This document shows, piece after piece, positions 2,707 through 9,883 of a DNA stretch of 64,000 nt. Position 1 is the stretch's first letter; every line of letters starts with the position of its first letter. The notes beneath the pieces are model-generated. The model saw nothing but the letters and a program-made list of their open reading frames with translations. It was not told the DNA's origin and ran no database searches. Both the position numbers and the translations under genes were made by a program. This stretch comes from Escherichia coli (GTDB lineage: Bacteria > Pseudomonadota > Gammaproteobacteria > Enterobacterales > Enterobacteriaceae), in NCBI RefSeq assembly GCF_024223415.1, contig NZ_CP100500.1; one strand, written 5' to 3'.

Positions 2707-5700
2707 ATGGGTAAAGGCAGCAGTAAGGGGCATACCCCGCGCGAAGCGAAGGACAACCTGAAGTCCACGCAGTTGCTGAGTGTGATCGATGTCATCAGCG
2801 AAGGGCCGATACAAGGACCGGTGGATGGATTAAAAAGCGTGCTGCTGAACGGTACGCCGGTGCTGGACAGTGAGGGGAATACCAATATATCCGGCGTCAC
2901 GGTGGTATTCCGGGCCGGTGAGCAGGAGCAGACGCCGCCGGAGGGATTTGAATCCTCCGGCTCCGAGACGGTGCTGGGTACGGAAGTGAAGTACGACACG
3001 CCGATTACCCGGACCATCACGTCGGCAAACATCGACCGTCTGCGCCTGACCTTCGGTGTGCAGGCACTGGTGGAAACCACCTCAAAGGGGGACCGGAATC
3101 CGTCGGAAGTCCGCCTGCTGGTTCAGATACAGCGTAACGGTCGCTGGTTAACGGAAAAAGACATCACCATTAAGGGAAAAACCACTTCACAGTATCTGGC
3201 TTCGGTGGTGGTGGATAACCTGCCGCCGCGCCCGTTCAGTATCCGGATGCGCAGGATGACACCGGACAGCACCACAGACCAGCTGCAGAACAAAACGCTC
3301 TGGTCGTCATACACCGAAATCATCGATGTGAAACAGTGCTACCCGAACACGGCACTGGTCGGTGTGCAGGTGGATTCGGAGGAGTTCGGCAGCCAGCAGG
3401 TGAGCCGTAATTATCATTTTCGCGGGCGCATTCTGCAGGTGCCGTCGAACTATAACCCGCAGACGCGGCAATACAGCGGTATCTGGGACGGAACGTTTAA
3501 ACCGGCATACAGCGATAACCCGGCCTGGTGTCTGTGGGATATGCTGACCCACCCGCGCTACGGCATGGGGAAACGTGTTGGCGCAGCGGATGTGGACAAA
3601 TGGGCGCTGTATGTCATCGGCCAGTACTGCGACCAGTCGGTGCCGGACGGCTCTGGTGGCACGGAGCCGCGCATCACCTGTAATGCCTGGCTGACCAGGC
3701 AGCGTAAGGCGTGGGATGTGCTCAGTGATTTCTGCTCGGCGATGCGCTGTATGCCGGTATGGAACGGGCAGACGCTGACGTTCGTGCAGGACCGACCGTC
3801 GGATAAGGTGTGGACCTATAACCGCAGTAATGTGGTGATGCCGGATGATGGCGCGCCGTTCCGCTACAGCTTCAGCGCCCTGAAGGACCGCCATAATGCC
3901 GTTGAGGTGAACTGGAGTGACCCGGATAACGGCCAGGAGACGGCGACAGAGCTTGTGGAGGACACGCAGGCCATTGCCCGTTACGGTCGTAACGTCACGA
4001 AGATGGATGCCTTTGGCTGTACCAGCCGGGGGCAGGCACACCGCGCCGGGCTGTGGCTGATTAAAACAGAACTGCTGGAGACGCAGACCGTGGATTTCAG
4101 CGTGGGTGCTGAAGGGCTTCGCCATGTACCGGGCGATGTCATTGAAATCTGTGATGATGACTATGCCGGTATCAGCACCGGTGGTCGTGTGCTGGCGGTG
4201 AACAGCCAGACCCGGACGCTGACGCTCGACCGTGAAATCACGCTGCCATCCTCCGGTACCACGCTGATAAGTCTGGTTGACGGAAGTGGCAATCCGGTCA
4301 GCGTGGAGGTTCAGTCCGTCACCGACGGCGTGAAGGTAAAAGTGAGCCGGGTTCCTGACGGCGTTGCCGAGTACAGCGTGTGGGGGCTGAAGCTGCCGAC
4401 GCTGCGCCAGCGCCTGTTCCGCTGCGTGAGTATCCGTGAGAACGACGACGGCACGTATGCCATCACTGCCGTGCAGCATGTACCGGAAAAAGAGGCCATC
4501 GTGGATAACGGGGCGCACTTTGACGGCGACCAGAGCGGAACGGTGAATGGTGTCACGCCGCCAGCGGTGCAGCACCTGACCGCAGAAGTCACCGCAGACA
4601 GCGGGGAATATCAGGTGCTGGCGCGCTGGGACACGCCGAAGGTGGTGAAGGGCGTGAGCTTCCTGCTTCGCCTGACCGTGGCCGCGGATGACGGCAGTGA
4701 GCGGCTGGTCAGCACGGCCCGGACGACGGAAACCACATACCGCTTCAGGCAGCTGGCGCCGGGGAACTACAGGCTGACAGTCCGGGCAGTAAATTCCCGG
4801 GGGCAGCAGGGAGACCCGGCGTCGGTATCGTTCCGGATTGCCGCACCGGCAGCGCCGTCGCGGATTGAGCTGACGCCGGGCTATTTTCAGATAACCGCCA
4901 CGCCGCATCTTGCCGTTTATGATCCGACGGTACAGTTTGAGTTCTGGTTTTCGGAAAAGCGGATTACCGATATCAGGCAGGTTGAAACCACAGCCCGTTA
5001 TCTTGGTACCGGAAGTCAGTGGCTTGTCTCCGGCCAGAATATTAAACCTGGCCATGATTATTACTTTTATATCCGCAGTGTTAACACTGTCGGTAAATCG
5101 GCATTCGTGGAGGCAGTCGGTCGGGCGAGTAATGATCCTGCCGGTTACCTTAATTTTTTCAGGGGGGCGATAAATAAAACGCATCTGGGACGGGAGATCA
5201 ATGAACGCATTGATGCCTCTGCACTGCGCACTGAAGTTGAGCAACTGGAGAATGAGATTAACCGCGAAATGACGCAGCTGGAGAAAGATGTGAGGCAGCG
5301 TGCGGAGCGTGATATCGCCGAGGTGACGAAAAAAATCACGGCGTCTGAAAACAGCATAACGGAACTGGTGGCGAAAAAGAGCGGTGAACAGTCGCTGGCC
5401 ATTGCGAAAGTCGACAGGAAAGTTGACAGCGTGAGCAGTGAAATCCGGCAGACAGTGAGCAGGAGCACGGAGGAGAACAGCCGACAGATAGCGCAGGTCA
5501 GGCAGTATGTTGATGATAAAAGTGCGCAAATAAGTACTGTTGTGGCGAAAAAGAGCGCTGAACAGTCAATGGCCATTGCGGAAGTTGACAGAAAAGTTGA
5601 CAGGATGGGAAGCGAAATCCGGCAGACAGTAAGCAGGAGCACGGAGGAGAACAGCCGACAGATAGCGCAGATCAGACAGTATGTTGATGATAAGGGAAGT

Positions 5701-6216
5701 CAGATCAAACAGAGCACGGATAAAAAACTGGGATCCTGGAATGCCAGCATTGAGCAGATACAGAAAGTTCAGGAGGACACGCGCCGGAACCTGAACAGCA
5801 TGTGGGCTGTGAAGCTGCAGCAGACACGGGATGGACGTCTCTATATTGCAGGTATTGGTGCCGGAATCGAAAATACGTCTGACGGAATTCAGAGTCAGAT
5901 CCTGATGCAGGCAGATCGTATTGCGATGATTAACCCGGAAAATGGCAATACAACACCTTTGTTTGTGGCTCAGGGTGATCAGCTGTTCATGAATGATGTT
6001 TTCATGAAAAAACTGACCGTGGATTTTGCCAGAGTGACGGGAGATATCCGGTCAGATAATTTTCATTCCGGTAGTCCGGGGTGGCGTTTATCAAGAAACG
6101 GCAGCCTTGAAATTAACTCAGGAAGGCCCGGCGCAGGCCGCCTGTTTTTCAATGGCGAGCGAATCGACGTATATGACGATAACAATGTGTTAAGAGTACG
6201 ACTGGGGAGACTGTAA
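2707..6216 (+). CDS. Host specificity / central tail fiber protein J, with divergent C-terminal part
   Basis: 1169 aa; SD GAGG before ATG 2707; conserved J blocks incl. [11 protein letters not shown] and [14 protein letters not shown]; long coiled-coil repeat region and short C-terminus that differ from lambda J as I remember it. Confidence 0.9.
5368..5715 (+). repeat. Tandem ~174-bp (58 aa) near-identical repeat inside the J coiled-coil region
   Basis: Peptide [51 protein letters not shown] repeated with few substitutions; visible at nucleotide level. Confidence 0.8.
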
Positions 6217-6476
6217 TGTTCGGAGTCCGGGTATGGCGCAAAGGGCGCCTTGTGACACATGAAATAAACCCAACAGGGGTGCTGGATGTGATCACTGAAG
6301 GGACGGGGCAGCGTTCTTATACTCCTTTGCAGGGCTGGCGTCTGGAAGTCTGTTCACCGGCCATTCTGATTAACGGTCAGGGAAGTCATACCAGTGCCAG
6401 TGTATCCGGCTGGACAGTGCACTATGCCAACACAAGCTGGCTAAGACCCGTGCTGGTCATGATAAGGGGGATCTGA
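6216..6476 (+). CDS. Hypothetical protein (86 aa), translationally coupled to J
   Basis: ATG overlaps J stop (TAATG); no signal peptide; no motif I recognise. Confidence 0.45.
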   Translation: MFGVRVWRKGRLVTHEINPTGVLDVITEGTGQRSYTPLQGWRLEVCSPAILINGQGSHTSASVSGWTVHYANTSWLRPVLVMIRGI

Positions 6477-7138
6477 TGTTTGCACTTAAATTAACTGATG
6501 AGCGGGGGAGAGAATGGATATCACCTGTTGCGCCGCCACTGAACCTTGTGCGCCGTTTTCATTTCACACTGAGTGCGCGTGATGCGGTGATGCAGTTTAT
6601 CGACACCGGGGTGCCGACGAATTATCGTTGCGTGATTTTTATTAAACAGATAAGCGGTAATCAGTCCTTCCATGGTGAAATGGTTCAGCTTAACGGTACC
6701 TGGCAGTATGACATTTTCAGCGCTGGTACAGGGCAGGAGCCGGGCATGGAACAGGACAGCACATATGTTGTTTATGTTTTTGCCAACATGGTGAATGTAT
6801 GGCCGCAATGGGGAATACAGTTGTGCGACAGTCATGGCAGGGTGGTCTGGAACACGGAAATGCTGCCACTGGAAGTAAAAATGACGCGAATATGGGAAAA
6901 GGATGTACCGATCAGTGTGGGACATGATGTGGCCGTAATGCCGGGGTGTACCCAGTGGACGACAGTTCAGGAAGGGGAGAGTTATTACTGGTATACCGCC
7001 AGTTTTAATGCCAGAAACTCACAGTTATGGCGTCAGTCAACTTTTGCTGAAGATAACGTAGCGGCGCCCAATGATAATTCAGGTGTTGTTAATAACCTCT
7101 GTTATTACATAAATGCAGAAATTTATGATGCGTACTGA
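6476..7138 (+). CDS. Hypothetical protein (220 aa), coupled to the preceding ORF; possible tail-tip or receptor-recognition accessory
   Basis: ATG overlaps upstream stop (TGATG); Trp/Tyr-rich sequence; no signal peptide; sits where lambda has lom. Confidence 0.5.
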   Translation: MFALKLTDERGREWISPVAPPLNLVRRFHFTLSARDAVMQFIDTGVPTNYRCVIFIKQISGNQSFHGEMVQLNGTWQYDIFSAGTGQEPGMEQDSTYVVYVFANMVNVWPQWGIQLCDSHGRVVWNTEMLPLEVKMTRIWEKDVPISVGHDVAVMPGCTQWTTVQEGESYYWYTASFNARNSQLWRQSTFAEDNVAAPNDNSGVVNNLCYYINAEIYDAY

Positions 7139-7159
7139 TAGTTATGTTGAGGGCATGTA

Positions 7160-7405
7160 ATGAAAATAATCGTCTGCACTTTTTTGCTGTTTCTTGTATC
7201 AGGTTGCGCGGGGTACCGTTCAGTTACGGAGAGAGTCCGGTGCACCGGTGTGCTGAGTCCCGGGGTTTTACAGCGAGCTTATACGGTAGATCTTACAGGG
7301 AAAATAGAAACGAAAAGCGGCACTGTGTATAAAGTATCAGCTCCGAGATTTTATGGTCAGTGGGTGAGTGAAGATATGTTTACGAAAGTTTCGTGCGTGA
7401 AGTAA
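7160..7405 (+). CDS. Small lipoprotein (81 aa), possibly Cor-like superinfection exclusion protein
   Basis: Signal peptide with lipobox LVSGC; own SD (GAGG) and downstream terminator; size and post-J position resemble cor of FhuA-dependent lambdoid phages (from memory, not sequence-verified). Confidence 0.45.
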   Translation: MKIIVCTFLLFLVSGCAGYRSVTERVRCTGVLSPGVLQRAYTVDLTGKIETKSGTVYKVSAPRFYGQWVSEDMFTKVSCVK

Positions 7406-7440
7406 TCATAAAAACACCCGATTGTAAATGAATGACGACG

Positions 7441-7466
7441 CCCGCAATTTTGCGGGATTATTTTTT
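7441..7466 (+). terminator. Rho-independent terminator after the lipoprotein gene
   Basis: Hairpin cccgcaattttgcggg followed by a T-run. Confidence 0.55.
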
Positions 7467-7477
7467 ATGGAGCGAGT

Positions 7478-9292
7478 ATGGCGGCTGTAAAAATTTCAGG
7501 CGTGCTGAGGGACGGAACCGGAAAACCGGTACCGGGATGCATTATTGAGCTGAAAGCGAAGAGAACCAGCGAGACAGTCATCGCCACGACAGTGGCTTAT
7601 GGCATGCCGGAAGAGACGGGGAGTTACAGTATGGATGTGGAGCCAGGAATATACAGGGTGACACTCAATACAGAAGGTTACCGTCCTTCGTATGTGGGAG
7701 ATATCGTGGTCAGGGAGGATTCTTCACCGGGAACACTGAATAAATTTCTGATGGAGATGGAAGATGCTCCTTATTATCCGAAGGCGTTGTCAGAGCTGGA
7801 GGCTGTGGTGCAGTCCATACTGCACAGAGCAGAGTCCGCGGCATCTGAGGCGGAGGAAGCCCGGAAACGAGCAGCATCTGCCCGGGGACCACGAGGAGAG
7901 AAAGGGGATACCGGCGCTCGTGGTGAAAGAGGCATTACCGGGCCACAGGGGCCAAAAGGTGAAACAGGAGCACGTGGCCCGGCAGGACCACAGGGACCAA
8001 AAGGTGAAACAGGTGAACGCGGTCCGGCAGGTCCACAGGGACTAAAGGGCGATACAGGTGAACGCGGCCCGGCAGGTCCACAGGGACCAAAGGGTGAAAC
8101 AGGTGCACGCGGCCCGGCAGGTCCACAGGGAGCAAAGGGCGAAACAGGTGAACGCGGCCCGGCAGGTCCACAGGGAGCAAAGGGCGAAACAGGTGCACGT
8201 GGTCCGGAAGGCCCTCAGGGTCTGAAGGGAGAAAAGGGTGAGCGAGGAGAAAAAGGCCCTAAGGGGGATAAAGGAGATCCGGGAGGTCCACAGGGACCAA
8301 AGGGGGATACAGGTGAACGCGGCCCGGCAGGTCCACAGGGATCAAAGGGCGATACAGGTGAACGTGGCCCGGCAGGTCCTCAGGGACCAAAGGGGGATAC
8401 AGGTGAACGTGGCCCGGAAGGTCCACAGGGAGCAAAGGGTGAAACAGGTGAACGCGGCCCGGCAGGACCACAGGGACCAAAAGGTGAAACAGGTGAACGC
8501 GGTCCGACAGGTCCACAGGGAGCAAAAGGTGAAACAGGAGCACGCGGTCCGGCAGGTCCTCAGGGACCAAGAGGAGAGTCAGCCCGTGGACAACTGCTGA
8601 ATGGTGATCTGAACCGACTGGGACGAGTGACCGATCAGGGTGATTATTATCAGCCATCAGACAGTGGGGCTACACGAGAAAATAATTATCCGATTCAGAG
8701 AGCGGGTTATCTTCAGGTAAGAGTTGGTGCATGGGGATATTGCCAGCATGAATATACAACCTGGAACCCACCACGAAAGTTCGTAAGAACTGTTACTGGT
8801 AATTTTACCGGTAATGGCCCCTGGTCTGAATGGAAAGAGCTGGGAGCCCAGGGGGAGCGTGGTCCACAGGGACCAAAAGGTGAAACAGGTGCACGCGGTC
8901 CGGCAGGTCCACAGGGACTAAAGGGCGAAACAGGTGCACGTGGCCTGGCAGGTCCTCGGGGGCCAAGAGGGTATACAGGTGAACGCGGCCCGGCAGGTCC
9001 ACAGGGGCCAAGAGGAGAAGCGGGGCGGCCAGCGAGCGTCGGAAGTGTTTATTCCGTGGGGTCTTATGTTCTGGGGATCATAGAACGAAATCATGAGATA
9101 ACAAATACCCGTCAAATACCCGGGTATCGTATCAGACAGGCCGTTATTGTGTCGTCGTCATCGGATAAACTTACAGATATCCGCTTTTTATTTGGCAATC
9201 CTATGCTTGGTACATGGATGTTATGCACAACTAACATGACGGTGAATAATATCAGTGGGACGATTTGGGGCCTGTTTCAGAGAATACTGTGA
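7478..9292 (+). CDS. Side tail fiber protein (Stf-like) with collagen-like Gly-X-Y repeats
   Basis: N-terminus [29 protein letters not shown] close to the lambda Stf N-terminus; about 240 aa of GPxGxxGxxG repeats plus a second shorter block. Confidence 0.85.
7853..8580 (+). repeat. Collagen-like Gly-X-Y triplet repeat array within stf (second block about 8828-9010)
   Basis: Repeated 9-nt and 27-nt units encoding G-P-Q-G-x-K-G-E-T; also produces spurious antisense ORFs. Confidence 0.85.
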
Positions 9293-9307: not shown

Positions 9308-9883
9308 ATGAAGGTCGATAAAATCACGTCACCAGTGTGGGCTGACAGGGGTCATACGACCATAAACTGTATAGTGAAGTTTTCAGACGCGGAAACAGAA
9401 TGTGTATTTACAGCAAGTGCGGATGATCCTGAGTCTTACGGTCGTGAAATATTTGAAGCCTGCATAAGAGGTGATGCAGGGCCGGTAGGTGAGTACCGGG
9501 CAAATGATGATATGGCTGTGGAAGAAGCACGCAGGATGAAAAACGCGGAGATAAATGCCTGGCGTGATGCGATGGAGGCGTCAGGGTATGTTTTTGAGCA
9601 CAGAGGACGGAAATGGGATTATGGAAAGGAAACCATGACACGTCTTGGAATGTCGGCATCAGCGGCCAGAGGCGGTGTGTTGCCGGAAGGATTTTTCTGG
9701 ACGGACGCAGAGAATAATGATGTACCGATGACGGCAGATGAACTGATATCCCTGAGTGATGCTGCTGGTAAAGCGATGTTCAGGAAAGGCCTTGAAATAC
9801 ATATAAGGCAAAGGGAGATGAAAAAGGCAATAGCAGAACTGAGTGACAGTGAAACCATTCTGGCGTACAGGGTTGGATGGTGA
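9308..9883 (+). CDS. Tail fiber assembly protein (Tfa-like chaperone)
   Basis: 191 aa directly after stf, with the size and position typical of lambdoid tfa; assignment is positional plus general family resemblance. Confidence 0.6.
   Translation: MKVDKITSPVWADRGHTTINCIVKFSDAETECVFTASADDPESYGREIFEACIRGDAGPVGEYRANDDMAVEEARRMKNAEINAWRDAMEASGYVFEHRGRKWDYGKETMTRLGMSASAARGGVLPEGFFWTDAENNDVPMTADELISLSDAAGKAMFRKGLEIHIRQREMKKAIAELSDSETILAYRVGW

Follow-up and report, generated by a model that had tools for sequence, protein, structure and literature searches.

We analysed a stretch of 64,000 nucleotides (nt) from Escherichia coli (RefSeq assembly GCF_024223415.1, contig NZ_CP100500.1), referred to as the window, and focused on the locus at which J, the tail tip gene of a prophage, ends and is followed by three open reading frames (ORFs) that are candidates for a receptor-recognition and exclusion module. 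The ORFs are named by their length in amino acids (aa), i.e. ORF86, ORF220 and ORF81. All features which a sequence-only reading of this region had described, including the TAATG and TGATG overlaps, the lipobox, the Shine-Dalgarno sequence and the terminator, are present, and the locus is composed as follows:

2707-6216, plus strand: J, tail tip/central fibre gene (1169 aa), TAA stop at 6214-6216
6009-7431, plus strand: exchangeable cassette consisting of the J distal tip (aa ~1102-1169), ORF86, ORF220 and ORF81
6010-6213, plus strand: J distal tip, the last ~68 aa, putative docking platform for a separately encoded binder
6216-6476, plus strand: ORF86, putative small subunit, ATG at 6216-6218 in a TAATG overlap with the J stop, TGA at 6474-6476
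6476-7138, plus strand: ORF220, putative large subunit and probable receptor-binding protein, ATG at 6476-6478 in a TGATG overlap with the ORF86 stop
7160-7405, plus strand: ORF81, Cor-like lipoprotein gene, 21 nt 3′ of ORF220 and with its own GAGGG Shine-Dalgarno sequence
7441-7466, plus strand: GC-rich hairpin resembling an intrinsic terminator, CCCGCAATTTTGCGGG followed by a T-run, closing the unit from J to ORF81

A terminator after cor is also annotated at the equivalent position in the phages phi80 and mEp235.

Comparison by blastn shows that a prophage of E. coli LR-31 is 96.8% identical to the window up to position 6008 and 97.5% identical from position 7432, with nothing alignable in between. 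At the place of 6009-7431 the LR-31 prophage holds a lambda-type J C-terminal domain and lom, in agreement with the sequence-only reading, which had assumed that the module stands in place of lom. As the lambda-type J end and lom are replaced cleanly between two prophages of 97% identity, we conclude that the cassette has been exchanged as one unit. Its GC content is 0.48 compared to 0.59 for the 5′ part of J, and the module is rare, with 9 carriers among 5426 complete E. coli genomes. The protein most similar to ORF220 (52% identity) comes from a prophage with the organisation of the short-tailed phage VT2-Sakai, where its gene pair follows a 421-aa tail spike ending in ...VYDQNGVVRVRIGRL; there the small protein is 63% and the 81-aa lipoprotein 49% identical, with the same overlapping start codons. 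A third variant of the cassette (50% identity) follows another lambda-type J. These sequence comparisons indicate that the cassette, composed of tip, small protein, large protein and lipoprotein, travels as a unit across tail types. A hok/gef-type toxin gene is located just 3′ of the related cassettes, both in the short-tailed-type prophages (about 7217-7357 in one of them) and in the third variant.

The body of J closely resembles lambda J. BLASTP aligns aa 1-836 to lambda J with 93% identity and aa 1012-1104 to lambda J 841-934 with 56% identity, the residues in between (aa 837-1011; 5215-5739) forming a coiled-coil insertion of 175 aa compared with lambda J, which contains a 174-bp tandem duplication (5368-5693; 1.9 copies, 90% match). 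A longer central fibre would result from the insertion; it is present in the lom-carrying sister prophage too and is therefore independent of the cassette swap. The NCBIfam model lambda_TipJ covers aa 1-904 only, and the Pfam model PF09327 (Phage_Tail_Tip) matches about aa 1012-1140 (E 3e-35). J stops 70 aa past a conserved FMNDVF block, where lambda J has ~200 aa more, and BLASTP aligns none of these last 70 aa to lambda J, the ~200-aa lambda-type C-terminal domain not being present. The sequence-only reading was thus right about the short end of J and about the missing long domain, and slightly off in placing the end about 60 aa after the block. J proteins of T1, mEp235 and of Pseudomonas, Ralstonia, Burkholderia and Vibrio phages align to the very C-terminus of the window J, and lambda-type J proteins cease aligning ~30-65 aa before it. 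Endings similar to that of the window J (...VYDQNGVVRVRIGRL, ...VYDKNNVLQVRIGKL) precede the two closest cassettes. Judged from these alignments, J is devoid of the lambda-type C-terminal receptor-binding domain.

We compared the three ORFs with the 49-63% identical cassette of another prophage and found the rate of nonsynonymous differences (pN) well below that of synonymous differences (pS) in all of them, pN/pS being 0.29/0.70 for ORF86, 0.33/0.76 for ORF220 and 0.37/0.61 for ORF81. Hidden Markov models (HMMs) built from other phages only, applied to 793 stop-to-stop segments of the window, picked uniquely ORF86 (E 4e-5), ORF220 (E 2.9e-24) and ORF81 (E 4.8e-8). Both comparisons indicate that the three ORFs are real genes, not chance ORFs. 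ORF220 matches PHROG 425 with E 3.3e-27, residues 1-218 covering profile positions 3-224 of 224, and ORF86 shows a weak but specific match to PHROG 557 (E 2.8e-4), having the N-terminal YG..W...G motif in common with the gp22 family in the alignment. The pair was compared with the genes following J in N15, phi80 and HK022, as had been suggested, and a homologous pair was found: ORF86 and ORF220 are distant homologues (18-29% identity) of gp22-gp23 of these phages and of ST32-ST31 of T1. The PHROG 425-type large-protein family comprises 312 clusters at 50% identity, and the family of the pair spans Drexlerviridae, Nonagvirus, Klebsiella Webervirus, short-tailed Shiga toxin (Stx) phages and one Pseudomonas phage. 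The earlier proposal of two ORFs outside any family and with an undescribed function is therefore not supported: the locus layout has been described before, and papers from 2021 to 2026 put forward a role of this locus in receptor binding (PMC8594841; PMC12309495; 10.64898/2026.04.02.716166). Other searches returned little. Pfam gave no match for ORF86, ORF220 or ORF81, a megablast of 5900-7500 against the phage collection gave no match, sequence searches of the PDB with single proteins and profiles (phmmer, hmmsearch) yielded noise only, and a word-indexed protein search gave nothing but near-identical clusters for ORF81 and, for ORF220, such clusters and a single relative of 52% identity.

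For ORF86, the RefSeq/PGAP annotation starts at GTG 6252, resulting in 74 aa, i.e. 36 nt later than ATG 6216. The 12 residues lying between the two starts are kept in homologues (MYGIQVWRKGIL, MYGIQVWRNGLL) and carry the YG..W..G motif, suggesting that translation more likely begins at ATG 6216, in overlap with the J stop. The corresponding gene of VT2-Sakai, orf63, is likewise annotated from an internal GTG (75 aa; locus positions about 4717-4995); a TTG in the same frame, located 51 nt further upstream behind an AGGAGG, would extend the protein by MEYGFAIYNRNNVNVTG and restore the N-terminal motif of the family.

Across 140 IMG/VR loci gathered with two subfamily alignments (80 FhuA-type, 60 Stx-type), the small and the large gene are directly adjacent in 139 and share one base in 79, and a long tail gene ends directly upstream in 122. 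A lipoprotein gene follows in all 80 FhuA-type loci, and the 60 Stx-type loci all lack one. Two virulent siphoviruses, tonn (Warwickvirus; locus 4720-5615) and JenP2 (Nonagvirus; 4717-5615), carry a pair of the Stx-phage type, 42-61% identical to VT2-Sakai orf64, which is convergent with the J-like gene in tonn and lies on the strand opposite to the flanking tail fibre genes in JenP2. Both phages may share their receptor class with the BamA-dependent Stx phages.

Structure prediction connects the pair to a known receptor-binding protein. The AlphaFold2 model of ORF220, calculated from a 128-sequence alignment, is all-beta with a pLDDT (predicted local distance difference test) of 91.7 and a predicted template modelling (pTM) score of 0.89, and its sole credible PDB match in Foldseek is chain C of 9rpt. 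This chain represents the receptor-binding protein of phage Oekolampad in complex with LptDE, the only binder with a gene beside gpJ that has been validated experimentally (10.1101/2025.07.07.663478). As 86 and 220 aa are together close to the 309-311 aa of such binders, we predicted that the small and the large protein jointly correspond to the single chain. We modelled ORF86 and ORF220 connected by a Gly-Ser linker, using 16 paired homologues plus unpaired rows and leaving out LptD-type sequences, and obtained a pTM of 0.80; with ORF86 included, 217 instead of 160 residues align with the Oekolampad protein, and the root-mean-square deviation falls. The predicted structures thus have the fold of 9rpt chain C. 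The LptD-binder sequence family is defined by more than 30% identity at full coverage (10.64898/2026.04.02.716166); we rejected membership of the pair in this family, given 10-11% identity and the split into two genes.

Profile comparison uncovered a motif of ~26 residues, (Y/W)G-x-x-x-x-D-x-x-G...P-L, that is found once in the small protein (N-terminal) and twice in the large one (N-terminal and near residue 110), the two halves matching in this hairpin motif with an hhalign probability of 92%. In Rtp44, the 311-aa LptD binder of phage Rtp, similar segments are found near residues 1 and 114 (both judged by eye) and 207 (by hhalign). The segment near 207 is matched locally by the ORF220 family (hhalign 83%, E 9e-6, 49 columns), which is the only sequence signal to the Rtp44 type. 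A natural single-ORF fusion exists in P0119 (316 aa, near the length of Rtp44), in which aa 1-83 belong to the small family (E 4e-7) and aa 100-309 to the large family (99.4%).

These data bear on the role of the small protein. ORF220 might bind the receptor alone, with ORF86 serving as an adaptor between J and ORF220, as a trimeric immunoglobulin (Ig)-like cap or as an assembly chaperone absent from the virion. AlphaFold-Multimer models of relatives, in which the small protein is an Ig-like homotrimer and the large one is favoured as terminal cap (PMC12309495), point in this direction, as do the weak family match of ORF86 and the poor prediction of its N-terminus in the fused model. The gain in the Oekolampad match upon inclusion of ORF86, the existence of a small-large fusion and the near-invariable adjacency of the two genes speak for a joint unit, and we consider it unlikely that ORF220 acts alone.

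Databases name the small and the large protein 'outer membrane protein' and 'membrane associated protein', respectively. A signal peptide, a lipobox and a membrane/hydrophobic segment are all missing from ORF86 and from ORF220, the KD19 (19-residue Kyte-Doolittle) maximum of ORF86 being 0.61, and the names are therefore not supported by the sequences. PHROG annotations and categories, together with the position of lom in related prophages, would be in line with the two proteins being lysogenic-conversion membrane proteins in the moron slot of lom. Apart from the missing export signals, on which account we rejected this candidate, each start codon overlaps the stop of the preceding gene (J and ORF86, respectively) with no promoter standing out, the same pair occurs in the strictly virulent phages T1 and tonn, the predicted fold matches a virion receptor-binding protein and PADLOC gave no match. 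All this renders a conversion role for the pair highly improbable.

The third gene encodes a protein of a different kind. The N-terminus of ORF81 (81 aa), MKIIVCTFLLFLVSG|C, consists of a signal sequence and a lipobox VSG|C with Ala at position +2, as expected of Cor, a lipoprotein of 75-80 aa. ORF81 matches the Cor family PHROG 1119 (E 8e-7) and PHROG 27799 (E 1e-8), and an HMM of Cor from 33 other loci matched it as the sole ORF of the window (E 4.8e-8); tblastn with ORF81 returned three weak Cor matches. It is 32% identical to phi80 Cor, with the conserved Cys28 and Cys79 aligned, the Cor proteins of T1 and phi80 being 37% identical. As Cor genes are, ORF81 is placed after a gp23-like gene and before a terminator. 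Since ORF81 scores below the cut-off of the NCBIfam Cor equivalog model NF047972, we file it as Cor-like, not as Cor. Although the gene is under purifying selection, a RefSeq genome that is 100% identical here leaves it unannotated, no coding sequence being listed from the end of the 220-aa gene to the start of that for the tail fibre. By sequence, ORF81 is a distant homologue of Cor and a predicted outer-membrane lipoprotein, and by analogy it is probably a receptor-blocking or superinfection-exclusion factor.

The likeness to Cor raises the question of whether the cassette recognises FhuA as N15, phi80 and T1 do, ORF81 then being a true Cor inactivating FhuA. ORF81 is nearly as close to phi80 Cor as T1 Cor is, both of which act on FhuA according to annotation and literature, and the synteny is that of the FhuA-type loci, in which the lipoprotein gene is invariably present. 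On the other hand, ORF220 is just 20-23% identical to the FhuA-type large proteins, which are 55-86% alike among themselves, its identity to the BamA-linked Stx-phage type is a little higher (28%), and ORF81 falls below the curated Cor cut-off. We regard recognition of FhuA as possible but rather doubtful. The fold does not give the receptor, since related folds bind FhuA, BamA and LptD, and neither does homology, because ORF220 is about equidistant (20-28%) from the FhuA-linked and the BamA-linked groups. The Cor-like partner suggests, as a first guess, FhuA or another TonB-dependent transporter.

Among known systems, the locus is most similar to that of the temperate lambdoid siphoviruses N15 (gp21-gp22-gp23-cor), phi80 (gp21-24), HK022 and mEp235, in which all three proteins are homologous to those of the window. 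The gene order in phi80 and mEp235/HK022 is the same, i.e. a J with a short tip, a ~100-aa gene, a ~212-229-aa gene with overlapping start, cor, terminator and side tail fibre, confirming the sequence-only reading in its reference to cor of phi80 and N15. Identity to the N15/phi80 type, which uses FhuA, amounts to 20-23% for the large protein, ~29% for the small protein and 29-32% for Cor, and unlike in this type the window J is a lambda J (93%) with a coiled-coil insertion. T1 has the same pair after a J-like gene and an adjacent cor (ST33-ST32-ST31 and ST30), but differs in being virulent, in having cor on the opposite strand and a terminator between J and the pair, and in its very divergent sequences. 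Such a 'FhuA-type RBP locus downstream of gpJ' (RBP, receptor-binding protein) was proposed in the BASEL papers as determinant of terminal receptor specificity in small siphoviruses (PMC8594841), which was extended later on (10.64898/2026.04.02.716166). The same two families, following a tail spike without an Ig-like end, were modelled by AlphaFold-Multimer on spike tips as an 'Ig-like' (small) and a 'hand-like' (large) protein forming a proposed spike cap that would bind FhuA or BamA (PMC12309495). The closest relative of the window cassette (52%) is found in a short-tailed Stx-like prophage, as in those systems, but Stx-type loci carry lom and no lipoprotein (0/60), whereas the clade of the window has the Cor-like lipoprotein in both tail types.

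Three further systems share the logic of the locus to different extents. The Oekolampad receptor-binding protein and Rtp44, the latter accompanied by Rtp45, are single chains of 309-311 aa compared to 86 plus 220 aa here, have LptD as receptor and show 10-11% identity; in Rtp the binder gene is convergent with J, and the window lipoprotein matches Cor families. T5 pb5 and Llp, to which the sequence-only reading had drawn a parallel, follow the same principle of a monomeric binder on a trimeric fibre tip and a periplasmic receptor-blocking lipoprotein, but they occupy another genomic position, and pb5 was neither among the fold matches of the models nor matched in the PDB sequence searches. The parallel holds in function and fails in sequence and fold, and a relationship of ORF220 to pb5 was rejected. 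In lambda itself, whose J C-terminal domain and lom occupy the same slot in the 97%-identical prophage, the binder is covalently part of J, lom encodes a beta-barrel protein and an exclusion lipoprotein is not present.

Taken together, we consider it probable that 6009-7431 serves receptor recognition and exclusion, as a cassette of the N15/phi80/HK022/T1 type placed on an otherwise lambda-like J. Synteny, homology and the match to 9rpt thus support in silico the functional reading made from the sequence, i.e. a J without binder, a separate binder and an exclusion lipoprotein. This suggests a model according to which J trimerises and, as its sequence indicates, terminates with a short tip in place of a receptor-binding domain of the Ig-like kind. 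The codon overlaps between the genes suggest that ORF86 and ORF220 would be produced from the same late transcript as J by coupled translation. Being soluble, both proteins would assemble into one unit capping the J tip and binding an outer-membrane protein receptor. According to the predicted structures, they would jointly adopt the fold of the single-chain Oekolampad binder, ORF86 giving the domain that is missing from ORF220, and the unit would consist of three ~100-residue beta domains, one from ORF86 and two from ORF220, each opening with a YG..D..G...PL hairpin. ORF81 would be exported, lipidated and, given Ala at +2, sent to the outer membrane to bind the periplasmic side of the same receptor, which would keep a lysogen or a lysing cell from adsorbing phages that use this receptor. 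Llp blocks FhuA from the periplasmic side, as shown structurally, and Cor is reported to do likewise for FhuA. Rtp45 was shown structurally to block LptD from the periplasmic side (10.1101/2025.07.07.663478).

Several points weigh against this model. All support is computational, and the literature on the gp22/gp23 family shows no member in the virion or bound to a receptor: the cryo-electron microscopy map of T1 left the distal fibre unresolved (PMC11945409), and virion evidence for a Littlefixvirus member consists of a band in sodium dodecyl sulfate polyacrylamide gel electrophoresis only (PMC12309495). The pair is not co-oriented with J in tonn and JenP2, and Rtp44, a proven binder, is convergent with its J gene as well. 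The family match of ORF86 is weak (about 20 bits), and ORF81 reaches 28.4 bits compared to the 31 bits of the NF047972 cut-off. The link to the Oekolampad protein is accompanied by a sequence identity of only 10-11% and by hhalign support that is local. In the fused model, the linker forces the two chains together, interface error estimates are not available and the first 20 residues of ORF86 are predicted with low confidence (pLDDT 42-53).

We tentatively go one step further and suggest that the pair could be a split form of the single-chain binders of LptD phages, so that at least two 'unrelated' gpJ-adjacent families would form one superfamily. The clade made up of the window and its two relatives at about 50% identity might then have as receptor an outer-membrane protein of E. 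coli distinct from FhuA, BamA and LptD, the lipoprotein having co-diverged to block that protein. If this is true, a three-hairpin unit of pseudo-threefold symmetry could sit on the trimeric J tip.

Two further tail genes follow 3′ of the terminator-like hairpin:

7478-9292, plus strand: collagen-repeat side tail fibre, with a PHROG tail fibre match, outside the swapped cassette
9308-9883, plus strand: tail fibre assembly protein, with a PHROG tail fibre match, outside the swapped cassette

Both are common to the window and the lom-carrying sister prophage, belonging to the 97.5% identical region from 7432. Collagen-like (Gly-X-Y) repeats of 45 bp form long arrays in the side tail fibre gene, with 14 copies at 7943-8570 and 3.5 copies at 8861-9019. 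Directly 3′ of the assembly gene, 10322-12247 encode a 469-aa protein, annotated in RefSeq as YadA-like adhesin, and a 151-aa sigma-factor-like helix-turn-helix protein, which are probably prophage cargo; strain F1022 has an insertion of an IS66-family element that separates the two genes from the assembly gene.

As a summary, our additions to the known locus are modest, namely the link in fold between the two-gene pair and a single-chain LptD binder and an exact natural swap on a lambda backbone. More and more, the small locus 3′ of gpJ is used to deduce which receptor a lambda-like or T1-like phage recognises, and the fold link to the Oekolampad protein, based on predicted structures, supports a role as binder for the whole gp22/gp23 family. 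The breakpoints 6008/6009 and 7431/7432, at which a built-in binder plus lom has been exchanged for a two-chain binder plus lipoprotein, provide a ready design for retargeting phage lambda.

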